Counted from the stretch's first letter, positions 8,211 through 43,367 are shown. The stretch: 48,717 bases of DNA from Acidaminococcaceae bacterium (GCA_963592385.1 CAVAWX010000002.1:1-48717); one strand, 5' to 3'. Notes: a model not told the origin generated them from the sequence alone. Numbers and translations are program-made.

Positions 8211-9692
8211 ATGCAGCTTGCAATCGAGAAGGTCTTTTCCGGCGTGGAGCATGCCGTCGTGCGCGGGAGCATCGATTCCGTGCTCGTGGGCGACGTCGTC
8301 TACGCCTCCTCGGAGGTGAAGCCCGGGGCGCTCTTTTTCTGCGTCGTGGGCACGCGCGTGGACGGGCACGACTTCGCGCAGGCCGCCGTCGCGGCGGGCG
8401 CGGTCGCCCTCGTGGTCGAGCGCCCGGTCGAAGGCTGCGAGGTGCCCCAGATACAGGTGGCCGACACGCGGCGCGCGCTGGCTTTGTGCGCGGCGAACTT
8501 CTTCGGCCGCCCTGCCGAGAAGCTTTCCCTCGTGGGCGTGACCGGCACGAACGGCAAGACGACGACGACCTTCCTCGTCGAGCACATGGCGGCATGCGCC
8601 GCGAAGGTGAAGACGGGCCTTGTGGGCACGGTCGAGGTGCACGTGGGCGACGAGCGCCGCCGCTCGCTTCGCACCACCCCGGAAAGCCGCGATCTGCAGG
8701 CGCTGCTTGCCGACATGGTGGACGCGGGCGTGGGCGTGGCGGCCCTCGAGGTGTCGAGCCACGCCATCGACTTGAACCGCATCGCGGGCACGCGCTTTGC
8801 CGTCGCGGCCTTCACCAACCTCTCCCAAGACCACCTCGACTACCACAAGACCATGGAGGACTACTTCGCGGCCAAGGCGCGCCTGTTCACCGACCACGAG
8901 GTGGGCGCGCGCGTCGTCTGCATCGACCACGAGCACGGCAGGCGCCTCGTGCAGATCTGCGAGCAGGCCGGCCACGAGGTCTTGACGGTCGGGGCGAACC
9001 GCGAGGCCTTCGTGCATCTGGAACGCGCCGTCTACGCGCCGCACACGACGCTTGTCACGCTGTCGTTCGGCGGCCAGCAGACAGACGAGTTCGCCTTGCC
9101 GCTGGTGGGGCGCTTCAACGTGGAAAACGCCCTCGTGTGCGCGGGCATCGGCGTGGCGCTGGGATATGCCCCGCAGGAGATATGCGACGCCCTCGCCTCG
9201 GCGCCGCAGGTGCCGGGCCGCATGCAGAGCGTGCAGGGCACGGACGGCACGCAGCCGCCCTTCGGCGTGCTCGTGGACTACGCGCACACGCCCGATGCCG
9301 TCGCCAAGGCCATCTCCGCCGTGGCCGACGTCACCCCCGGGCGCGTCATCTGCGTGTTCGGCTGCGGCGGCGACCGCGACCGCGACAAGCGCCCGAAGAT
9401 GGGAGCGGCCGCGTTGTCGGCCGACATCGCCGTCGTCACCTCAGACAACCCGCGCACCGAAGACGCGCGCTCCATCATCGACCAGATCCTGCCCGGCATG
9501 GAGGGCGCCGGCGCGCGCGTGCACGTCGAGCCCGACCGCCGCCGCGCAGTGCGCCTCGCGCTCTCGCTGGCCGAAAGCGGCGACGCCGTGCTGATCTGCG
9601 GCAAGGGCCACGAGGACTACCAGATAGTGGGCACCGAGAAGCTGCCCTTCGACGACCGCGTCGTCGCGGCCGAGGAGATCGATGCCCTGTGA
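8211..9692 (+). CDS. murE: UDP-N-acetylmuramoyl-L-alanyl-D-glutamate--2,6-diaminopimelate ligase MurE
   Basis: ATG at 8211. Mur ligase P-loop GVTGTNGKTTT and the DNPR motif (TSDNPRTED) associated with meso-DAP specificity. Confidence 0.93.
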   Translation: MQLAIEKVFSGVEHAVVRGSIDSVLVGDVVYASSEVKPGALFFCVVGTRVDGHDFAQAAVAAGAVALVVERPVEGCEVPQIQVADTRRALALCAANFFGRPAEKLSLVGVTGTNGKTTTTFLVEHMAACAAKVKTGLVGTVEVHVGDERRRSLRTTPESRDLQALLADMVDAGVGVAALEVSSHAIDLNRIAGTRFAVAAFTNLSQDHLDYHKTMEDYFAAKARLFTDHEVGARVVCIDHEHGRRLVQICEQAGHEVLTVGANREAFVHLERAVYAPHTTLVTLSFGGQQTDEFALPLVGRFNVENALVCAGIGVALGYAPQEICDALASAPQVPGRMQSVQGTDGTQPPFGVLVDYAHTPDAVAKAISAVADVTPGRVICVFGCGGDRDRDKRPKMGAAALSADIAVVTSDNPRTEDARSIIDQILPGMEGAGARVHVEPDRRRAVRLALSLAESGDAVLICGKGHEDYQIVGTEKLPFDDRVVAAEEIDAL

Positions 9693-19332: not shown

Positions 19333-19388
19333 GAGCCGCAGTCGCACACCCGCTTCACCACCCGAAAACAGCCCTCCCGCAGGATTAT

Positions 19389-19439
19389 TTGAAGCTTATT
19401 TCGATACTTTTATGAAAAACGCCAGCATTGGAGTACAAT
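19389..19439 (+). promoter_or_regulatory. AT-rich candidate promoter region upstream of ftsZ
   Basis: Locally AT-rich tract with TACAAT at 19434-19439 and ATGAAA 16 nt upstream. TTGAAG at 19389-19394. The assignment is weak. Confidence 0.3.
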
Positions 19440-19530
19440 TTGCAGGGTTTCCATGCTTTCGGGGCTTTGCGCACGCCGTGCGAGGGGCCTGAAAGCTTGT
19501 AGTGAAGATAGAAAAGCTGGAGGATACGAA

Positions 19531-20643
19531 ATGCCCGATATAGCAGGAGCGGACCATCTGGCCGTCATCAAGGTCGTCGGCGTCGGCGGCGGCGGCACGA
19601 ACGCCGTCAACCGCATGGTCGAGGCCGGCGTCAAGGGCGTCGAGTTCATTGCGATCAACACCGACCGCCAGGCATTGCTCATGTGCGACGCAGACCGCAC
19701 GGTCCACATCGGCGAGGAGCTCACGCGCGGCCTGGGCGCGGGCGCGAACCCCGAGATCGGCTGCCAGGCGGCCGAGGAATCGCGCAACGACATCCGCGAC
19801 GCGCTTGCCGGCGCCGACATGGTCTTCGTCACGGCAGGCGAGGGCGGCGGCACGGGCACGGGCGCGGCGCCCGTCGTGGCCGAGATCGCCATGGAGGAGA
19901 TCGGGGCGCTCACGGTGGCCGTCGTCACCAAGCCCTTCGGCTTCGAGGGCCGCAAGCGCATGGTGCGCGCCGAGGAGGGCATCGCGGTGCTCTCCGAAAA
20001 CGTCGACACCCTCATCGTCATCCCCAACGACCGCCTCATGCAGGTCATCGAGAAGCGCACGTCCATGCTCGACGCCTTCCGCATCGCCGACGACATCTTG
20101 CGCCAGGGCACCCAGGGCATCACGGACCTCATCACCATCCCCGGCCTCATCAACCTCGACTTCGCCGACGTCCGCACCATCATGAAGGGCGCGGGCACGG
20201 CCATGATGGGCATCGGCATCGCCTCCGGCGAGAACCGCGCCACCGAGGCCGCCACGCAGGCCGTCAGCTCGAAGCTGCTCGAAAGCTCCGTGCAGGGCGC
20301 CACGCGCATCCTCTTCTCCATCACAGGTCCGTCCGATCTGCCCCTGGAGGAAGTCGACGAGGCGTCGCGCATCATCAACGACGCGGCCGACCCCGAGGCC
20401 GACATCATCTTCGGCACGGCCATCGACGATTCGCTCGACGACCAGCTGCGCATCACCGTCATCGCCACGGGCTTCAGGAACGACCCGCGCCAAGACGAGG
20501 CCGACCCGCGCGACGTGCGCTCCGCGAACCGCCCCGCTTCCACGCGCGTGCGCTCGAACGGCACGCCCGCCGCAGACGACGCCTCCCTCAACGCGCTCTT
20601 CGACGACGACATCCCCGATTTCCTCAAGCGCAGCCGCTACTAG
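19531..20643 (+). CDS. ftsZ: Cell division GTPase FtsZ
   Basis: GGAGG SD precedes ATG 19531. Contains [11 protein letters not shown] and the tubulin signature [11 protein letters not shown]. Acidic C-terminal peptide [10 protein letters not shown]. Confidence 0.97.
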
Positions 20644-25533: not shown

Positions 25534-25719
25534 GGGGTGCGCGCGCCTTCACCTGCCTCGAGGGGTGCAGGCCCGGCGCATGCACGCAACACGCCGGCCG
25601 TCCCTTTCACCATCCGGAGGAAGGGCAAGGCGGCACACGACGCGAGAAAACCAACGCTTGCGGCTGCAGCGTTTTACATAGATCGAAGTGGCGACACACT
25701 TTGGGAAAGGTTGAGTGAG

Positions 25720-25833
25720 ATGAAGGTACGTCCTTCTGTAAAGAAAATGTGCGACAAGTGCAAGGTCATCAGGCGTCATGGCAAGGTTTACGTCATTTGC
25801 GAGAACCCGCGCCACAAGCAGCGCCAGGGCTAG
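25720..25833 (+). CDS. rpmJ: 50S ribosomal protein L36
   Basis: 37 aa, [37 protein letters not shown]. Confidence 0.95.
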
Positions 25834-25848
25834 GGAAGGCAGGATACA

Positions 25849-26220
25849 TTGGCTCGTATACTCGGTGTCGACCTCCCGCGCGACAAGCGTGTGGAAATCG
25901 GTCTGACCTACATTTTCGGCATCGGCGCGACCTCGGCGAAGAAGATCTGCGCCGAGACGGGCGTCGACCCCAACACGCGTTGCCGCGACCTCACTGAAGA
26001 CGAGGTCGTGAAGCTGCGCGACAACATCGACAAGAACTACACCGTGGAAGGCGACTTGCGCCGCGAGGTGTCGCAAAACATCAAGCGCCTGATGGAGATC
26101 GGCTGCTACCGCGGCCTGCGCCATCGCAAGCACCTGCCCGTCCACGGCCAGCGCACGCACACCAACGCCCGCACCCGCAAAGGTCCTCGCCGCCAGATCG
26201 GCGCGAGGAAGAAAGGCTAG
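25849..26220 (+). CDS. rpsM: 30S ribosomal protein S13
   Basis: [29 protein letters not shown] start. Confidence 0.97.
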
Positions 26221-35868: not shown

Positions 35869-38535
35869 TCACCCTATCCCGAGCTCTTCGGCAAAGCCCA
35901 CGCGGTAGTCGGAAAAGACGACGCTGCCCTCTTCCTGCGTCGCGTCCAGGTCCACGTCGCCGGCGATGCCGAAATCGTCGTCGCCGTCGGCGTCGTGGAC
36001 CATCTGCCGCACGTGCCAGACGTGGGCGCTCTTCTCGTCGGCCTCGTCGATGCTCAGATAGCGCGCCGAGCGGGCATCCCCGTCGAGCAGCACCTCGTCG
36101 TGGGCCTCGTAGAACTCGTCGAGCGCCGCCGTCCACGCCGCCTGCCCGAAGTGCATGTCCTCGTCCATGTCGGCCAGCGCCTTCGCGTCGCCGCGGGCCA
36201 TCTGCACCACGCGCGCGAACAGGGCGTTGCGCACGAGCAGCTGCACGGCCCGCCTGTCGCGCACCACGACGTCGGCCGCCTGCGGCGCGGCCAGCTCGGC
36301 CCCGGCGCCGTCGCCCTCTTCACCGCTCCCAAGCCCTGCCCACTCGTCGAGCAGGCTCGAGTCCGTGGTGCGCACGACCAGCCCCAGCCACTCGACGATC
36401 TCGTCCAAGCGCTCGTCGTAGGCGGCGTCCGGCACGGTCTTGTCGAGCACGCGCCACGCGTCCGACAGGTAGCGCAGCAGCGTGCCCTCCGAGCGGGCGA
36501 TGCCCAGCCGCGCGATGTAGCCCTTGAAGTCGCTCGCGCTTTCCACCATGTCGCGCAGGATGGATTTGCAGCTCAGGGTGAAATCGGCGGCCCAGGGCAC
36601 CTTCTCGCAGTAGGTGGCAAACGCCGGCTCCAGCAGCTCGGCCAGCGGCTGGGGGTGCTCGACCTCCTGCAGGCGCTCGATGCGCTCGTCGTAGTCCAGC
36701 CCCTCGGCCTTCATCTCCGCCATCGCGCGGTCGCGCTCCTGGCGCTGCTGCGCCCGCAGGATCTGCCAGGGGTCCTCGAGCGTGGCCTCCACCATCGAGA
36801 TCAGGTCGAGCGCGTAGTCGTCGTCTTCGCGGTCGAGCAGCTCGATCGCCGCCAGCAGGAAGGGCGACAGCGGCTGGTCGAGGGCCAGGTTGTCCGGCAT
36901 CTCGCAGGTCAGCTGGTAGTACATGCCCTCCTCGTCGCAGCCCTCCTCGACGACGCCGGCGGCCATGAGCGTGGCGAAGACCTCGGCGGCGCGCGTGTGC
37001 AGGCGCTCCTTTTCGCCCGGCTCCTGCGCGGAGTCGTCGATGAGCTTGTCCACGCGCGCGCGGGCGTCGCCGCCTTGGATCACCTCGTTTAACACCATGG
37101 AGTGGCTCACGCGCATGTGGGGGCGCAAGGTCTCGGGCGCGCTGTCCACGAGCTGCTCGAAGTGCTGGCGGTTCCAGGCCACGAATCCCTTCGGCGGCGT
37201 CTTCACCTTTGCCTTGCGCGCCTTCTTCGCGTCGCCGCCGGCCTTCGTCAGCGCCCGCGCCCGCTCGATGTCGTATTCGGTGGCCTCGCACACGACGCGC
37301 CCCGTGGCGTCGAAGCCGCTGCGGCCCGCGCGCCCCGCGATCTGGTGGAACTCGCGCGCGTTCAGGCGGCGCGTGCGGCGCCCGTCGTATTTGGCCAGCG
37401 CCGTCAGGAGCACGGTGTGGATGGGCACGTTGATCCCGACGCCCAAGGTGTCGGTCCCGCATATGACGGGTAAAAGGCCCTGCTGCGCGAGCTTTTCGAC
37501 GAGCAGGCGGTAGCGCGGCAGCATGCCGGCGTGGTGGATGCCGACGCCGCAGACGAGCAGGCGGCGCAGCGCCTTGCCGAAGGCCGTGGAGAAGCGCACG
37601 CCCGCGATCGCCTCCTTCACCCGCTCGCGCTGCTCCTTGCTCGACACGCCGTAGCTCGCAAGCGCCTGGGCGCTCTTGTAGGCCGCGTCCTGGGCGAAGT
37701 GCACGATGTAGATGGGGCTCGCGCCGCTCCGCAGCTCCAGCTCGACCGTGGCCTCGAGGGCCGTCTCGACGAACTCGTACTCGAGGGGGACGGGGCGCTC
37801 GGCTTCGGCCACCGTCTCCACGTGCCGGCCCGTGCGCGCGGCCAGCGACTCGGCGATGGCGCTCGTGTCGCCCAGGGTGGCGCTCATCAGCAGGAACTGC
37901 GCGTGCGGCAAGGCGAGCAGCGGCACCTGCCAGGCCCAGCCGCGCTGCGCGTCGCCGTAGTAGTGGAACTCGTCCATGACGACGCAGCCGATGTCGGCGT
38001 CGGCGCCCAGGCGCAGCGCGTCGTTTGCGAGGATCTCGGCCGTGCAGCAGATGACGGGCGCGTCCGTGTTCACCGCCACGTCGCCGGTGATCATGCCGAC
38101 GTTGTCGCGGCCGAGCACGCGCACCATGTCGAAGAACTTCTCGGAGACGAGCGCCTTGATGGGGGCGGTGTAGTAGGCGCGGCGGCCCGTGCATATGGCG
38201 GTGAAGCACAGGCCCAGCGCGACGAGCGACTTGCCCGAGCCGGTGGGCGTGCCGAGTATGACGTGGTCGCCGGCGGCAAGCGAGAGCAGCGCGTCTTCCT
38301 GGTGGGCCCACAGCTTCGTGCCGCGCGCCTCGACCCAGCCCAAGAAGAGGTCGAGGGCCTCGTCGGCGGGAATGTCCGGCCAGGCGTTCGGGTCGGCCGG
38401 CCAGGGGATGAGCGCGCCCAGGTCGGCCGGGGTGCCCGCGTCTGCCGCGCCCGCGTTGTCGCCGCCTTCTTTGCCCGCGTTTTCTTCGGCAGCGTCCACC
38501 TGCGCCTCTTCCCGCTCTGTCGTCTCGCGTTCCAT
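35869..38535 (-). CDS. Ski2-like DExH-box helicase, probably with a DUF3516-type C-terminal region
   Basis: 888 aa. Motif I GTPTGSGKS, Ia YTAPIKALVSEKF, II DEFH, III SAT, VI QIAGRAGRSG. Confidence 0.88.
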   Translation of the reverse strand: MERETTEREEAQVDAAEENAGKEGGDNAGAADAGTPADLGALIPWPADPNAWPDIPADEALDLFLGWVEARGTKLWAHQEDALLSLAAGDHVILGTPTGSGKSLVALGLCFTAICTGRRAYYTAPIKALVSEKFFDMVRVLGRDNVGMITGDVAVNTDAPVICCTAEILANDALRLGADADIGCVVMDEFHYYGDAQRGWAWQVPLLALPHAQFLLMSATLGDTSAIAESLAARTGRHVETVAEAERPVPLEYEFVETALEATVELELRSGASPIYIVHFAQDAAYKSAQALASYGVSSKEQRERVKEAIAGVRFSTAFGKALRRLLVCGVGIHHAGMLPRYRLLVEKLAQQGLLPVICGTDTLGVGINVPIHTVLLTALAKYDGRRTRRLNAREFHQIAGRAGRSGFDATGRVVCEATEYDIERARALTKAGGDAKKARKAKVKTPPKGFVAWNRQHFEQLVDSAPETLRPHMRVSHSMVLNEVIQGGDARARVDKLIDDSAQEPGEKERLHTRAAEVFATLMAAGVVEEGCDEEGMYYQLTCEMPDNLALDQPLSPFLLAAIELLDREDDDYALDLISMVEATLEDPWQILRAQQRQERDRAMAEMKAEGLDYDERIERLQEVEHPQPLAELLEPAFATYCEKVPWAADFTLSCKSILRDMVESASDFKGYIARLGIARSEGTLLRYLSDAWRVLDKTVPDAAYDERLDEIVEWLGLVVRTTDSSLLDEWAGLGSGEEGDGAGAELAAPQAADVVVRDRRAVQLLVRNALFARVVQMARGDAKALADMDEDMHFGQAAWTAALDEFYEAHDEVLLDGDARSARYLSIDEADEKSAHVWHVRQMVHDADGDDDFGIAGDVDLDATQEEGSVVFSDYRVGFAEELGIG

Positions 38536-38542
38536 GCGGGCG

Positions 38543-38548
38543 ATTCTA
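38543..38548 (-). promoter_or_regulatory. Candidate -10 box giving a leaderless helicase mRNA
   Basis: On the minus strand, TAGAAT is followed by 7 nt (cgcccgc) and then the helicase ATG (38535). No SD is present. Confidence 0.35.
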
Positions 38549-38752
38549 CCAGCCCCCGGCCGCCGCGCTTCCCGCGCGAGCTGCGCTTGAATCTTGCGTT
38601 TGGTGAACGGCGCGCGCGACTGTGCGCGACCACGCGCGCGACCGCCTTTCCGAACGCCGTCAACATGTCCGCTCGTGCGGCGGGGCGGGTGGCGAGCCGC
38701 GCTAGAATACGATGCGTCGGATGCGGGATTTCACCACGAGGAGGGTTTCACC

Positions 38753-39001
38753 ATGGCGCAGGAAAAACCGGTTCTCTACTACTGGGGCCCGTGCCCCACG
38801 TGCGCGTTGGTCGTCGATTTCGCCGAGCAGCACGGCATCGAGCTGGACAAGCGCGACGTCGAGCAGCAAGGGCCTTTCGACGAGCTGTGCGCGCTGGGCG
38901 GCGACGCGAACCAGATCCCCTATCTCTACGCGGACGGCCAGCTCGTCCAAGGCGTCGAGGCGGCAAACGCCTACCTGCAAGAGCACTTCGCCTCCGCGTG
39001 A
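38753..39001 (+). CDS. Glutaredoxin/NrdH-like small thioredoxin-fold protein
   Basis: 82 aa. CPTC redox motif near the N-terminus (VLYYWGPCPTCALV). GAGGAGGG SD. Confidence 0.7.
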   Translation: MAQEKPVLYYWGPCPTCALVVDFAEQHGIELDKRDVEQQGPFDELCALGGDANQIPYLYADGQLVQGVEAANAYLQEHFASA

Positions 39002-39073
39002 ACATGTGAGCGGCAACGCAGGCGCGGCGGCAGTTGTACCGAGGGCGCTGGGGCCTTCGGGATCGAGAAAGGG

Positions 39074-40144
39074 GTGCGCGACGTGGTGGATGAGCTTTCA
39101 AACTCTGAAGGGCGCGAGATCGTTTCCGAGGAGTTCTACAGGCAGGTCTCCTCGATTTTGAGTGCTGCCCGCAGCAAGGCGTATGCGGCCGTCAACTTCG
39201 CCATGGTCGAGGCGTACTGGGAGATCGGACGCAGCATCATCGAGCAGCAGGGCGGTGAAGACCGGGCCGGGTACGGCGATGCGCTCGTGGAAGGGCTTGC
39301 TGCCAAGCTAACAAAAGACTTTGGGAGCGGCTTCGACGTTAGAAACCTGCGTTTCATGCGCCAGTTCTACCTTGCGTTCCCAATTCGGAACGCACTGCGT
39401 ACCGAATTGAGTTGGACCCATTACCGCAGGCTGTCGCGCATAGAGGACGTCGACGCGCGCATGTGGTACATGAACGAGTGCGCCGATTCGCGCTGGAGCA
39501 CGCGCCAGCTCGAGCGCCAAATCAACACGATGTTTCGCGAACGCCTGCTTGCCAGCAGGGACAAGGAGACCGTCGCGGCCGAGATCCAGAAAAGCGCTCC
39601 GCCAAAACGCCCCGAGGACATCATCCGCGACCCCTACGTGCTCGAGTTTCTGGGCTTTTCGGACGATCCCGCGTTTCGCGAGGACGGCCTCGAGCAGGCG
39701 CTCATCACGCACTTGCAGAAATTCCTGCTCGAGCTTGGCCGCGGCTTCACCTTCGAGGCGCGCCAGAAGCGCATTACCTTCGACGGCCGCCACTTCTACA
39801 TCGACCTCGTGTTCTACAACTACCGCATGCGCTGCTTCGTGCTCATAGACCTCAAGACCGGCGACCTCACGCACCAGGACCTGGGCCAGATGCAGATGTA
39901 CGTGAACTACTACACGCGCGAGCTGATGAACGAGGGCGACAATCCACCCATCGGCATCGTGCTGTGCGCCGACAAGAGCGATTCCATCGTGGAGTACACC
40001 CTGCCGCAGGACAACGAGCAGGTCTTCGCGGCCAAGTACCTGCCGTATCTTCCGAGCAAGGAAGAGCTGGCGCGCGAGCTGAGCGCCGAATACCGCGCAC
40101 TCGACGAGTCGGCCGCCGGAAAGGAAGAACATGAGCAGGACTGA
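39074..40144 (+). CDS. YhcG-like PDDEXK nuclease domain protein (DUF1016)
   Basis: N-terminal helical DUF1016 part (YAAVNFAMVEAYWEIGRSI...NLRFMRQFY). C-terminal PD-(D/E)xK core (FLLELGRGFTFEARQKRITFDGRHFYIDLVFYNYRMRCFVLIDLK...GQMQMYVNYY). The true start may be GTG 39083 or 39086. Confidence 0.85.
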   Translation: MRDVVDELSNSEGREIVSEEFYRQVSSILSAARSKAYAAVNFAMVEAYWEIGRSIIEQQGGEDRAGYGDALVEGLAAKLTKDFGSGFDVRNLRFMRQFYLAFPIRNALRTELSWTHYRRLSRIEDVDARMWYMNECADSRWSTRQLERQINTMFRERLLASRDKETVAAEIQKSAPPKRPEDIIRDPYVLEFLGFSDDPAFREDGLEQALITHLQKFLLELGRGFTFEARQKRITFDGRHFYIDLVFYNYRMRCFVLIDLKTGDLTHQDLGQMQMYVNYYTRELMNEGDNPPIGIVLCADKSDSIVEYTLPQDNEQVFAAKYLPYLPSKEELARELSAEYRALDESAAGKEEHEQD

Positions 40145-40282
40145 TACTGGGGTTTTCGGACTCGTCTGGTGCGCTGCCACGCTTGTCTGCGAGCGCAGGC
40201 TCCGTGGCTTCTGTCCCGCCTATTATAAGGAGGCAATTTGTCGAATGCGGTCTGACGAAGTTGCCGCCGGGAGGGGTGAGTG

Positions 40283-41155
40283 ATGAACGGAGTAACGGAG
40301 CATTCCGGTGAGATGGGCGCCAACAAGAAGCCCTGGCAGCTTGAGCTTGGGGAATACATCCGGCAAGGCGAGCCGGGCAGGGTGCAGAAGGCGGAGTCGT
40401 GGCAAACGGCCATCGGCCTGCAGCAGGTCGACGGCCTCGAGGTGTCCGACTACCTGCTCGACACCGCCAAGCTGCACGTTGAAGGCGACATCGACACGCA
40501 GGGCGCGCGCGAGCGCATCGAGAGCTACTACGAGCAGCGCCGCAGCAGGGGCGTCGTGGAGGACGGGACCGAGGAGGCCGACCTCGTCTCCCAGCGCATC
40601 GTCGAGCTGCTCGGCGAGCGGGCTTTCACGCTCTCGCCGCTGGCCTGGATGGGGATCCACCGCCGCCTCTTCGAAGGTATCTTCGACGGTGCGGGAAAGC
40701 CCCGCGACTACAACATCACCAAGGAGGAATGGGTGCTCAACGGCGACACGGTGACGTACGCGCCTTGCTCCGACCTCATGCCGACCCTCGAGTACGACTT
40801 CGACCGCGAGAGGGCGTTCTCGTATGCCGGGCTTTCAATCGAGGAAGCCGTCGAGCATCTCGCGCGCTTCGCCGCCGGCATCTGGCAGATTCACCCCTTC
40901 TGCGAGGGCAACACCCGCTCGACGGCCGTGCTGCTCATCAAGTACCTGCGCAGCATGGGTTTCGAGGCCGGCAACGAGCCCTTCGAGAGCAACTCCTGGT
41001 TTTTCCGAAACGCGCTCGTCCGCGCCAACTACGCGAATTACGAGGCGTCCGTGCATCCCACGTTGAAGCCGTTGACGGATTTTCTAGACAACGTCATGAC
41101 CGGCGCGAGGCACCCGCTGCGCAACAGGGAGCTTCACGTCGACTATTCCCGATGA
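40283..41155 (+). CDS. Fic domain protein with a VbhA-like N-terminal segment and a non-canonical Fic motif
   Basis: Fic motif HPFCEGNTRSTA at 40892-40927. N-terminal segment WQTAIGLQQVDGLEVSDYLLDTAKLHVEGDIDTQGARERIESYY. GGGAGGGG SD lies 6 nt before the ATG. Confidence 0.88.
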   Translation: MNGVTEHSGEMGANKKPWQLELGEYIRQGEPGRVQKAESWQTAIGLQQVDGLEVSDYLLDTAKLHVEGDIDTQGARERIESYYEQRRSRGVVEDGTEEADLVSQRIVELLGERAFTLSPLAWMGIHRRLFEGIFDGAGKPRDYNITKEEWVLNGDTVTYAPCSDLMPTLEYDFDRERAFSYAGLSIEEAVEHLARFAAGIWQIHPFCEGNTRSTAVLLIKYLRSMGFEAGNEPFESNSWFFRNALVRANYANYEASVHPTLKPLTDFLDNVMTGARHPLRNRELHVDYSR

Positions 41156-41225
41156 ACGCCCCTGCATTCAGGCCCCGAAACCAGGCGAGCCCCTTTGTAA
41201 AATATATTCCAGGAGGTGGCAAACG

Positions 41226-41573
41226 ATGAACTGCCCTGAATGCAACGCTGCGACTATTTCTAGGATCGAGGGGTCGAGCCTGGTTATTGAATGCCCGGAC
41301 TGCGGGTGGTCAGTCGTGACCAGCTACATTGACCCGATGTATGAAGACCAGACGGTTTACTCCGTTCGTGTCGGGATCAACGAGACCCCGGGCAAAGAGG
41401 CTCTCAAGGCCGTGTCCCATATTGCGGGAGGGAATTTCATTTCCGCGAAGCATATTCTCGAGACTCCGGGGTCAGAACTTATCGAAGGAAAGGCGCCGGT
41501 TGTCAAGAGCTGCCTCGAAGAGCTTGCGGGCGCCGGTGTCAACTTTGTGGTGACCCCTGAATTTCCCTTCTAG
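41226..41573 (+). CDS. Small protein: N-terminal CxxC...CxxC zinc ribbon plus an L7/L12 C-terminal-domain-like half
   Basis: AGGAGGTGG SD at 41211-41219. CPEC(17)CPDC. Residues from about 45 to 111 align without gaps, by eye, to the L7/L12 CTD. More A/T-ending codons than its neighbours. Confidence 0.6.
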   Translation: MNCPECNAATISRIEGSSLVIECPDCGWSVVTSYIDPMYEDQTVYSVRVGINETPGKEALKAVSHIAGGNFISAKHILETPGSELIEGKAPVVKSCLEELAGAGVNFVVTPEFPF

Positions 41574-41580
41574 CGCAAGC

Positions 41581-41616
41581 GAGTGAGTGATTGATTGAGT
41601 GATTGATTGATTGATG
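41581..41616 (+). repeat. Tetranucleotide tract (GAGT/GATT), 9 units
   Basis: GAGT GAGT GATT GATT GAGT GATT GATT GATT GATG. This places TGA in all three frames just after the stop of the ZnR gene. Confidence 0.85.
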
Positions 41617-41659
41617 TCGAGTCCCTGGTGCGATGTGCGTCGGAGACTCGACTTTCTTT
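41616..41659 (+). terminator. Possible terminator of the accessory three-gene unit
   Basis: GTCGAGTC (41616-41623) pairs with GACTCGAC (41645-41652), then TTTCTTT. The 21-nt loop is long, so confidence is moderate. Confidence 0.4.
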
Positions 41660-41918
41660 AGCCGATTTTGCGCTTCAGGTCGGGCGCCGCGTGTTCTTTG
41701 TGTTGCCTCTGCTGCTTACGGCATTGGTTTGAGTGCCTCTTGGCTTTTGAACTAGGCAAGTCCCTGACCCATTATAATTTCGGGGTGAAAAGGTCTTTGG
41801 AAACAGGGCATTCGATTTGGACTCGCGCAACGCCCGGCTGCTCGTGCATCTGGACGCCGAGGGGGATTTCATGCGCGACGTCATAAGCGTGGTGAAAAGT
41901 TTCTACTGAGTCGGTGCA

Positions 41919-42008
41919 GCAAAGGCCGGCGGGGAAGTTGACGCGGCGCGACATGGCAAAGGCCGCCTGGAAGGCTAGCGGGGCGCGGGGCGGCAAAAGC
42001 CGGCGGGG
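41919..42008 (+). repeat. Three phased direct repeats, GCAAAGGCCG-like, at 37-bp spacing
   Basis: GCAAAGGCCGGCGGGG (41919), GCAAAGGCCGCC (41956), GCAAAAGCCGGCGGGG (41993). They lie in the alaA upstream region. Confidence 0.6.
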
Positions 42009-42152
42009 CTTTTGGTATCCTGCACGGAAAGCGAAACGCGGCGCGCGTGCGAGGCCGCGCGAGTACGAGGCGGCGCGCGTGCAAACGGACACGTCGTGCG
42101 CGGGCAAACGCACACGCCGCGCGCGCAGGCGAGACGGGAAGGCGGGGCGCAT

Positions 42153-43367
42153 ATGCGCAAGTTCAACAAATCATCCAAGCTGCACGGCGTGGGCTACGAC
42201 GTGCGCGGGCCTGTGGTCGAAGAGGCCGCCCGCATGGAGCAGATGGGCACGCACGTCCTGAAGCTCAACATCGGCAACCCCGCGCCCTTCGGTTTCCGCA
42301 CCCCCGACGAGGTCGTCTACGACATGTCGCGCCAGCTGACCGACTGCGAGGGCTACTCGCCGTCCAAGGGCCTGTACTCGGCGCGCAAGGCCATCATGCA
42401 GTACGCGCAGACCCGCCACCTGCCCAACGTCGACATCGAGCACATCTACACGGGCAACGGCGTCTCCGAGCTGATCAACCTGTGCCTGCAGGCCCTGCTC
42501 GACGACGGCGACGAGATCTTGATCCCGGCGCCCGACTACCCGCTGTGGACGGCCTGCGCGACGCTTGCCGGCGGACGCCCCGTCCACTACGTCTGCGACG
42601 AGGAGGCCGACTGGCTGCCCGACATGGACGACCTGCGCGCGAAGGTCTCCGAGCGCACGAAGGCCATCGTCATCATCAACCCGAACAACCCCACGGGCGC
42701 CCTCTACCCCAAGGAGCTGCTGGAGCAGATCGTCGAGCTGGCCCGCGAGAAGGAGCTGATCATCTTCTCCGACGAGATCTACGACCGCCTGGTCATGGAC
42801 GACGCCGAGTTCACCTCCATCGCCTCGCTGGCGCCCGACCTGTTCTGCGTCACCTTTTCCGGTCTGTCCAAATCGCACATGATCGCGGGCTACCGCGTGG
42901 GATGGATGGTGCTGTCCGGCAACCTCGACGCCGGCCGCGGCTACATCGAGGGCCTCGACATGCTCTCGAACATGCGCCTGTGCTCGAACGTGCCGGCGCA
43001 GTCCATCATCCAGACGGCGCTGTGGGGCCACCAGAGCGTGAAGGACTACGTGGTGCCGGGCGGGCGCGTGCTCGAGCAGCGCGATTTCGTCTACAACTCG
43101 CTGAAGGAGATCGACGGCATATCCGTGGTGAAGCCCAAGGCCGCCTTCTACATCTTCCCCAAGCTCGACGTGGGTAAGTTCAACATCACCGACGACGTGC
43201 AGTTCGCGCTGGATCTGCTGAAGGAGAAGAAGGTGCTCGTCGTGCAGGGCACGGGCTTCAACTGGGGCGCGCCCGACCACTTCCGCATCGTCTACCTGCC
43301 GCGCATCGACATCCTGCACGAGGCCGTCTCGAAGATCGCCGACTTCCTCGACGGGTATCGGCAATAG
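42153..43367 (+). CDS. alaA: Glutamate-pyruvate aminotransferase AlaA-type (PLP class I)
   Basis: Near-colinear by-eye match to the remembered E. coli AlaA (KLNIGNPAPFGF, GYSPSKGLYSARKAIMQY, IINPNNPTGALY, SGLSKSHMIAGYRVGW, DHFRIVYLPR). Confidence 0.92.
   Translation: MRKFNKSSKLHGVGYDVRGPVVEEAARMEQMGTHVLKLNIGNPAPFGFRTPDEVVYDMSRQLTDCEGYSPSKGLYSARKAIMQYAQTRHLPNVDIEHIYTGNGVSELINLCLQALLDDGDEILIPAPDYPLWTACATLAGGRPVHYVCDEEADWLPDMDDLRAKVSERTKAIVIINPNNPTGALYPKELLEQIVELAREKELIIFSDEIYDRLVMDDAEFTSIASLAPDLFCVTFSGLSKSHMIAGYRVGWMVLSGNLDAGRGYIEGLDMLSNMRLCSNVPAQSIIQTALWGHQSVKDYVVPGGRVLEQRDFVYNSLKEIDGISVVKPKAAFYIFPKLDVGKFNITDDVQFALDLLKEKKVLVVQGTGFNWGAPDHFRIVYLPRIDILHEAVSKIADFLDGYRQ

Follow-up and report, generated by a model that had tools for sequence, protein, structure and literature searches.

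Three co-directional genes lie between a glutaredoxin-like gene and alaA in a 48.7-kb stretch of DNA of 67% GC (CAVAWX010000002.1:1-48717; hereafter the window). Relatives of the window genes bear the names Eggerthellaceae or Coriobacteriales, and the host is an uncultured, Eggerthellaceae-like actinobacterial gut genome. An earlier reading of the sequence (the original prediction) had proposed that the three genes form one acquired module. They encode a YhcG/DUF1016 nuclease, a non-canonical Fic protein and a small protein combining a zinc ribbon with a domain resembling the C-terminal domain (CTD) of ribosomal protein bL12 (L7/L12). The features of the region are as follows.

38536-42126, no strand: strain-variable slot from the start of the DUF3516 helicase gene to the alaA ribosome-binding site, delimited by comparison with the related contig L014
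38747-39001, plus strand: glutaredoxin-like small open reading frame (ORF) with a CPTC motif (Pfam Glutaredoxin 23.5 bits against a cut-off of 22.9; GC content at third codon positions (GC3) 0.87); not in L014
39074-40144, plus strand: YhcG/DUF1016 PD-(D/E)xK nuclease gene, 356 aa, full-length and solitary; PADLOC candidate PDC-S02
40283-41155, plus strand: Fic gene of the Fic-winged helix-turn-helix (Fic-wHTH) family, 290 aa, with the C-terminal winged helix missing; PADLOC candidate PDC-S72
41194-41229, plus strand: remnant of a toxin-like gene, its 11 final codons (FVKYIPGGGKR) and stop, found by tblastn and DNA homology
41226-41573, plus strand: small gene, 115 aa, putative orphan antidote (immunity or antitoxin type) with a zinc ribbon and a bL12-CTD/ClpS-like domain
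41581-41616, plus strand: GAGT/GATT short tandem-like repeats between the small-gene stop codon and the hairpin (repeat family D1, three overlapping 16-nt copies)
41616-41659, plus strand: intrinsic-terminator-like hairpin with T-tract, apparently of the small-gene cassette (-22.3 kcal/mol, z -3.05)
41660-42126, no strand: low-GC spacer upstream of alaA with no assigned feature (GC 0.51-0.60)
42150-43367: alaA

The three genes are indeed plus-strand ORFs, and the gaps between them measure exactly 138 and 70 nt when the Fic gene is started at the ATG at 40283. This start, giving 290 aa, has a GGAGG-type ribosome-binding site upstream and matches the recorded product; the alternative at 40280 gives 291 aa. 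The domain calls of the original prediction were also confirmed. The YhcG protein scores 151.5 bits against DUF1016_N (E=2e-44; cut-off 32.8) and 191.7 bits against YhcG_C (E=1e-56; cut-off 32.5). At 356 aa it is full length (its relatives measure 344-359 aa), and the catalytic E...D...(D/E)xK series can be read in the translation (FTFEARQ ... FYIDLVF ... VLIDLKTG). The Fic protein reaches 45.6 bits against PF02661 (cut-off 24) with the motif HPFCEGNTRSTA, and its AF2 model (pTM 0.80) matched Bep1, FICD, SoFic and VbhT in Foldseek with a probability of 1.00.

In the small protein, a CxxC...CxxC zinc ribbon precedes a domain that is closest in fold to bL12 CTDs. In its AF2 model, which is of moderate confidence (pLDDT 78, six sequences), this domain has a beta-alpha-alpha-beta-alpha-beta topology, and Foldseek gave the bL12 CTD 1ctf as the best PDB match (TM 0.80, rmsd 1.9 Å), with ClpS next. 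A 42-member profile of the family aligned with residues 49-119 of E. coli bL12 at a hhalign probability of 87% and E=4e-6, and bL12 proteins were the best natural matches of the family profile in the PDB (E ~0.007). Topology is thus shared with both the bL12 CTD and ClpS, and the bL12 pattern (I/L)K.V...L..AK..L recurs in the small protein. The four-Cys zinc ribbon, however, stands in place of the N-terminal dimerisation/stalk-binding domain of bL12, the protein ends in a family-specific P(E/D)FP(Y/F), and its gene lies outside ribosomal operons and is present in few genomes. The window protein matched no Pfam (PF00542) or NCBIfam (TIGR00855) model at cut-off, remaining below the Ribosomal_L12 threshold, and its relatives matched Ribosomal_L12 models at sub-threshold level only (P0345, E=0.007; P0247, E=0.026). 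While a word-indexed search had returned only five relatives, a full profile search retrieved 502 clusters at E up to 0.001, mostly of 115-125 aa and including some fusions. The ratio of non-synonymous to synonymous substitution rates (dN/dS) of the small gene is 0.05-0.15, indicating strong purifying selection even among orphan copies.

We compared the neighbourhoods of relatives of each gene. The closest Fic relatives (82-84% identity; three loci) are solitary, in unrelated surroundings without YhcG or the small gene. In 80 further Fic loci scanned by tblastn, an approach that is imperfect for divergent YhcG, a YhcG gene was nearby in one and the small gene in none; in a Pfam census of immediate neighbours, YhcG was not one of the 25 most frequent families upstream or downstream of Fic. 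No Fic or small gene was present in 10 YhcG loci, and no Fic or YhcG gene in any small-gene locus examined, the relatives of the small gene lying in four other kinds of context. For the trio, a comparison across unrelated genomes, which the original prediction had proposed as a check, showed no conserved co-occurrence or order. The original prediction had named scattered, individual relatives as the outcome that would speak against it, and relatives of all three genes do lie individually in other contexts.

Composition does not unite the genes either. GC3 is 0.82 for YhcG, 0.88 for Fic and 0.66 for the small gene, against 0.94-0.96 in the flanking core genes, and measured against all plausible window genes the small gene is the sole clear outlier of the three. 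The proposed shift toward A/T-ending codons therefore holds for the small gene, but not as a steady fall toward the 3' end. The AT-rich stretch said to follow the last stop begins directly at the small-gene stop codon. It is the lowest of the window at a scale of 300 bp (41531-41830, GC 0.51); at 100-200 bp, 19361-19580 is marginally lower. Short low-GC spots comparable to the one behind the small gene occur at 19361-19580 and 25671-25870 (GC 0.43-0.51).

A single toxin/effector-plus-adaptor or phage-defence module, in which YhcG and Fic would be the effectors and the small protein their adaptor or regulator, has some appeal. The genes are co-directional with short gaps, a single strong terminator-like hairpin lies behind the small gene, two of the three proteins have PADLOC defence-candidate matches, and the whole segment is absent from the syntenic relative L014. 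The missing co-occurrence in Fic, YhcG and small-gene loci and the differing composition argue against such a module, as do two features that the original prediction overlooked, namely the absence from the Fic protein of the C-terminal domain that its family normally carries, and the final 11 codons of a different gene lying directly against the small ORF. The small gene comes with this upstream stub and probably with a terminator of its own. We regard a three-gene module as very improbable, and the trio does not stand as a new system.

The remnant identifies the regular partner of the small gene. DNA similarity between the window and every other small-gene context begins at 41194, 32 nt before the small-gene ATG. 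Elsewhere, the bases at this place close a gene that encodes a 164-aa protein and whose stop codon overlaps the small-gene start (ATGA), and tblastn with the 164-aa protein of contig L008 gave 82% identity at 41194-41226 of the window. The 11 codons in the window hold the ribosome-binding site of the small gene and overlap its ATG in the same ATGA fashion. In all seven other contigs retrieved, the small gene directly follows a frame or fragment of this kind (in L187 and L188 as judged by gene coordinates). The upstream gene is 164 aa long in L008, L187 and L188, 113 aa in L004-L007, 70 aa in L002/L003 and 11 aa in the window.

The full-length form belongs to a five-gene arrangement in three independent metagenome contigs (L008, 679-3306; L187, 253-2880; L188, 3-2643), in the order XRE-HTH, Peptidase_M78 (ImmA-like), DUF4417, 164-aa His/Cys protein and small gene. 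The DUF4417 protein matches a phage 'nuclease' PHROG. This arrangement looks like mobile-element cargo and may be where the small gene natively belongs. A phage origin of the small gene itself was considered and rejected, since tblastn found no match in 50,697 phage records and neither the small nor the toxin-like protein has a PHROG.

A His (..AHGT..) is conserved and a Cys (..LSCxTG..) invariant in the 164-aa protein; NCBIfam returned nothing for it, and sequence and profile searches of the PDB returned nothing credible. Its homologues suggest a toxin-like domain. Ralstonia GMI1000 has the homologous domain, with His and Cys conserved, at the very C-terminal end of a 791-codon Rhs frame, directly after a DPxGL motif (...DPDGL); DPxGL separates Rhs cores from toxin tips. 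On Streptomyces and Rhodococcus plasmids it occurs as small ORFs, each followed by an unrelated small ORF, and because these plasmids carry a different small family, the domain appears to have two or more downstream partners that are unrelated to each other. The proteins downstream on the two plasmids (L183, 6462-6830; L184, 5433-5837) share the motif DG..W.WP ... YYV..Y. A metagenomic protein (P0330) is a fusion of the toxin-like domain with the small protein. A distant homologue of the small protein is encoded on Tistrella pTM1 downstream of an Rhs gene and beside an annotated 'immunity 22 family protein'.

These contexts and the selection on the gene fit an antidote that has outlasted its toxin. 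Judged from sequence, the small protein is most likely an immunity protein or antitoxin that has outlived a lost toxin gene. In the window it would form part of a cassette of ~400-470 bp with much lower GC, starting 38 nt after the Fic stop codon and comprising the 11-codon stub, the translationally coupled 115-aa gene and probably its own terminator hairpin. The hairpin (41616-41652, then TTTCTTT) is real, none of 200 shuffled sequences being equally stable. Its assignment to the end of a three-gene unit, as originally proposed, did not hold: it apparently goes with the small gene, because a similarly placed hairpin directly follows the small-gene stop in L004; DNA similarity itself was traced to 41595 only. 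A related, GTGAT(T/C)-type sequence occupies the place of the GAGT/GATT repeats of the window in L002 and L004. The small gene in the window is probably expressed by read-through from the Fic gene, and an orphan antidote could protect the host against a toxin delivered by neighbours or carried by incoming mobile elements.

The cassette resembles the orphan tip/immunity modules of polymorphic toxins (Rhs, CDI) in several respects. A translationally coupled small gene sits behind a 3' toxin-gene fragment, truncation points vary by genome, the homologous domain is an Rhs tip behind DPxGL, a homologue lies in an array of immunity genes, and the orphan is under purifying selection. Unlike such modules, the window copy is far from any toxin locus and sits in a housekeeping slot, and its closest full-length partners are stand-alone 164-aa proteins of the XRE/M78/DUF4417 arrangement rather than large secreted toxins. 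No Pfam or NCBIfam model exists for either the toxin-like domain or the antidote family, and the antidote has a bL12-CTD-like fold.

The gene upstream of the cassette is incomplete with respect to its family. Among the 120 best Fic homologues, 116 measure 353-435 aa and carry a C-terminal winged-helix (HTH) domain, or Fic-like_C in a few. The window Fic matches PADLOC PDC-S72 with E=2e-112 but covers profile positions 7-271 of 377 only, and ends in ...HVDYSR, exactly at the start of the winged-helix linker (the alignment stops at ...HVDY). The window contains no remnant of the winged helix; tblastn with five C-termini gave nothing in 41150-42150. Further tail-less variants of the family were found (P0018, P0072, P0125), and by sequence the tail of the family is exchangeable. 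Fic cores 82-84% identical to that of the window carry either an HTH_24-type winged helix (P0008) or Fic-like_C PF21247 (P0014/P0015; L009, L011). DNA similarity to other Fic loci is limited to 40319-41145. The dN/dS of the window gene (0.15-0.20) is slightly raised relative to that between two full-length relatives (0.12), which gives no clear sign of decay.

Compared with the canonical HxFx(D/E)GNGRxxR, the active-site motif of the window Fic has Thr for Gly8 and Ala for Arg12 and thus lacks the signature of a canonical AMPylase. The atypical motif noted in the original prediction belongs to the family as a whole: the pattern HPF(C/R)EGNTRxTA is invariant in 24 aligned members. Since the core bears a family-wide degenerate motif, HPFxEGNTRxTA, classical AMPylation appears doubtful. 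A VbhA-like segment is fused ahead of the core at residues 44-80 (Pfam VbhA 16.8 bits, E=0.007, under the cut-off of 25.9). At the place of the inhibitory motif (S/T)xxxE(G/N) it reads LQQVDG, with Asp for Glu, in an alignment read by eye. The protein is therefore akin to class I Fic pairs (VbhT/VbhA, FicT/FicA) in that its core best matches VbhT, FicT, Fic-1 and the Fic domains of Bartonella Beps and is preceded by a VbhA-like segment. It differs from these pairs in the fusion of that segment to the core, in the LQxVDG found for (S/T)xxxE(G/N), in the HPFxEGNTRxTA motif and in the C-terminal winged helix that is normal for its family.

Members of the Fic-wHTH family appear usually to stand alone, behind a canonical Fic gene or beside restriction genes. 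A second Fic gene lies directly upstream in 24 of 65 loci of the Pfam neighbour census, hsdM- or hsdR-like genes are near Fic in 21 of the 80 metagenome loci, and genes downstream include N6_Mtase/HsdM, ResIII, Mrr, GmrSD and C5-methylase. Upstream Fic partners in L102-L181 include L104 9114-10001, L130 7627-8229 and L110 9365-10009; two that were inspected have the canonical motif, HPFQDGNGRVGR and HPFREGNGRSTR. One possible role of the degenerate Fic-wHTH protein, which bears the VbhA-like segment, is to act together with a canonical Fic enzyme or to regulate it. Next to the window Fic and its closest relatives, no such canonical partner gene is present.

The juxtaposition of a Fic gene that keeps the VbhA-like segment and core with a cassette starting 38 nt past its stop suggests that arrival of the cassette removed the Fic 3' end; no intermediate was found among the loci compared. 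The same junction could be read as the birth of a new two-gene Fic pair, in which the small protein would have replaced the lost winged helix, its bL12-like domain directing Fic, for example, to a translation factor. The two genes are probably co-transcribed, some Fic/Doc enzymes modify EF-Tu (the target of Doc), and the bL12 CTD binds EF-Tu and EF-G. That the small protein is a split-off C-terminal domain of Fic was considered and rejected, because the family tail is a winged helix, the small protein has a different fold and it matches no PADLOC model. A newly formed pair is hardly credible: the junction is unique to the window, the small gene adjoined none of the 80 Fic genes, other variants without the winged helix (P0018, P0072) exist without the small gene, and the conserved partner of the small gene is a different protein.

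The YhcG gene is likewise separated from its usual surroundings. It matches PADLOC PDC-S02 with E=4e-146. Its relatives number in the thousands; those of 85-90% identity lie inside type I restriction-modification (R-M) operons, immediately behind hsdM and ahead of an hsdS-sized gene and hsdR, in two arrangements on ten contigs. DUF1016 and Fic genes have been found between hsd core genes (PMC9881135). PDC-S02 and PDC-S72 belong to 145 phage-defence candidates, the PDC candidates having been chosen by 'guilt by embedding' in R-M, BREX and DISARM systems (bioRxiv 10.1101/2024.01.29.577857). The window YhcG has no defence gene alongside, so it is not embedded in the sense by which PDC-S02 was chosen. 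The defence flavour that the original prediction gave to the trio is thus right for the YhcG and Fic genes as candidates, with strong PDC-S02 and PDC-S72 matches and relatives adjoining R-M, Mrr and GmrSD genes, but not for the small protein, and it is qualified by the lack of restriction genes in the window and the partial PDC-S72 coverage of Fic. Any defence activity of YhcG or Fic here would be putative. The YhcG gene has a dN/dS of ~0.10.

Both families being typically restriction-linked or embedded, YhcG and Fic might be the leftovers of a decayed type I R-M locus from which hsdM, hsdS and hsdR were deleted. We found no such gene or remnant in the window (tblastn, best E=0.26). DNA similarity to the R-M-embedded YhcG genes is limited to 39119-40111 and ends with the ORF, and YhcG occurred near the Fic family at one of the 80 loci only. 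Common descent from an R-M locus is accordingly quite improbable.

Comparison with relatives showed that the slot as a whole is variable. Scanning species-representative genomes with alaA gave three close relatives, L012, L013 and L014 (97%, 95% and 93% alaA identity, respectively). The closest syntenic one is L014, with 93% amino acid identity for the helicase, 93% for alaA and 87% for the downstream UvrD-like gene. Nucleotide homology between the window and L014 stops at 38420, in the helicase 5' region, and restarts at 42127. The helicase-alaA interval of L014 measures ~0.9 kb and lacks the glutaredoxin-like, YhcG, Fic and small genes; its minus strand (9111-9678) carries genes for ParE, a toxin (Pfam E=1e-9), and for a Phd/YefM-like antitoxin (E=8e-6). 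This pair suggests that small conflict modules enter the slot repeatedly. The stretches upstream of alaA in L012 and L013 (1-10000) carry genes unrelated to the window and to one another, so that the 5' side of alaA appears to be a recurrent synteny breakpoint in the genus. From the differing slot of L014 and upstream genes of L012 and L013 we take the accessory segment to be 38536-42126, including the glutaredoxin-like gene. The horizontal acquisition suggested in the original prediction is thereby supported, and its statement that no integrase, transposase, nearby tRNA or meaningful flanking repeats are present also holds, a search for direct and inverted repeats having given chance-level short matches only. 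The slot resembles integration hot spots and small defence islets in carrying different cargo between the same core genes, ParE/Phd in L014 and glutaredoxin-like/YhcG/Fic/antidote in the window. It is unlike them in being without integrase, tRNA or flanking repeats and in its very small size, 0.9-3.6 kb.

Taken together, we consider it likely that the slot at 38536-42126 is a mosaic that accumulated unrelated conflict genes by separate events, and not an operon-level system. Its contents would be the glutaredoxin-like gene; a solitary, restriction-linked YhcG of the kind that usually sits inside type I R-M operons, flanked by hsdM and hsdS; a tail-less Fic-wHTH member; and the low-GC cassette. 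That genes cluster in one orientation within a low-GC insert does not show that they form a system; here the cluster would mark a small collecting point for conflict genes.

Several points weigh against this reading. The 80 metagenome loci of the wider Fic sample are mostly from gut Firmicutes at 53-61% identity to the window protein, and the rule that the small gene follows a toxin-like frame comes from seven contigs (three kinds of context), the window and two plasmid loci. The adjacency of Fic and the small gene, with its 70-nt gap, would allow co-transcription and a strain-specific, acquired functional interaction. The toxin-like domain has a sub-threshold Pfam match only (Peptidase_C80, E=0.046), and its toxicity is accordingly suggested by context. 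Finally, the 164-aa protein is complete, length-conserved and encoded by a stand-alone gene in the L008, L187 and L188 operon behind the XRE/M78 pair, and because of this operon the 164-aa and small proteins could be subunits of one machine.

In the latter case the small protein would serve the upstream His/Cys enzyme of the XRE/M78/DUF4417/164-aa/small module as an accessory subunit, for instance as an adaptor for targeting or for ribosome/GTPase binding, and the window copy would be a functionless or re-purposed leftover. The conserved five-gene order with overlapping stop and start codons in three independent contigs is consistent with this, as are the natural fusion of the two proteins (P0330) and the homology of the small-protein domain to bL12, a binder of translational GTPases. 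Orphans behind progressively truncated upstream genes, still with a dN/dS of 0.05-0.15, nevertheless fit antidotes better than subunits of a lost enzyme; the toxin-like domains of Ralstonia, Streptomyces and Rhodococcus precede unrelated small ORFs in the usual toxin/immunity pattern; and the homologue from Tistrella is encoded within an array of immunity genes that follows an Rhs gene. We find the subunit interpretation rather unlikely, and prefer an orphan antidote within a mosaic slot.

The fold of this putative antidote invites a further suggestion. The Zn-ribbon/bL12-CTD-like proteins might be an undescribed antidote family acting by target mimicry, as decoys of the bL12 CTD, with the His/Cys (C80-like) toxin attacking bL12 or a docking translational GTPase and the window carrying an orphan decoy. 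We rate this idea as distinctly unlikely; if true, one more toxin/immunity pair, this one directed at the ribosomal stalk, would become known, with relevance to interbacterial antagonism and translation. What is new at the locus is mildly so, namely an uncurated family of ~500 clusters of Zn-ribbon/bL12-like proteins coupled to an uncurated His/Cys toxin-like domain; the remainder, a set of accessory genes in a hot spot, is of an ordinary kind. Three annotations can be corrected. The Fic gene falls within the Fic-wHTH (PDC-S72) family, in which the catalytic motif is degenerate throughout, but is without the tail; the 'hypothetical' 115-aa gene belongs to that ~500-cluster family, which has a bL12-like fold and no curated model; and the constant partner of the small gene is the His/Cys toxin-like domain, which also serves as an Rhs tip.

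Several minor observations concern the rest of the region and the contigs used. An Rfam scan of 38400-42300 with E up to 1 gave no RNA element, and a scan for sigma-70-type promoters found no sites, a result that is uninformative for an actinobacterium. High-GC contigs that match the window in alaA and its flanks (L012, L013, L027, L064) are labelled, for instance, Ruthenibacterium lactatiformans or Oscillibacter sp., and other bins of the same 'cleanbin' project bear names such as Holdemanella and Tidjanibacter; the taxon labels of the project look unreliable. A tRNA-Arg(ACG) gene is located at 3-79, at the extreme edge of the window and far from the three genes. The 467-bp spacer at 41660-42126 showed no similarity to any of the loci compared; repeats within it are an imperfect direct one of 23 nt (41912/41986) and a perfect one of 13 nt, GCGGCGCGCGTGC (42038/42070).

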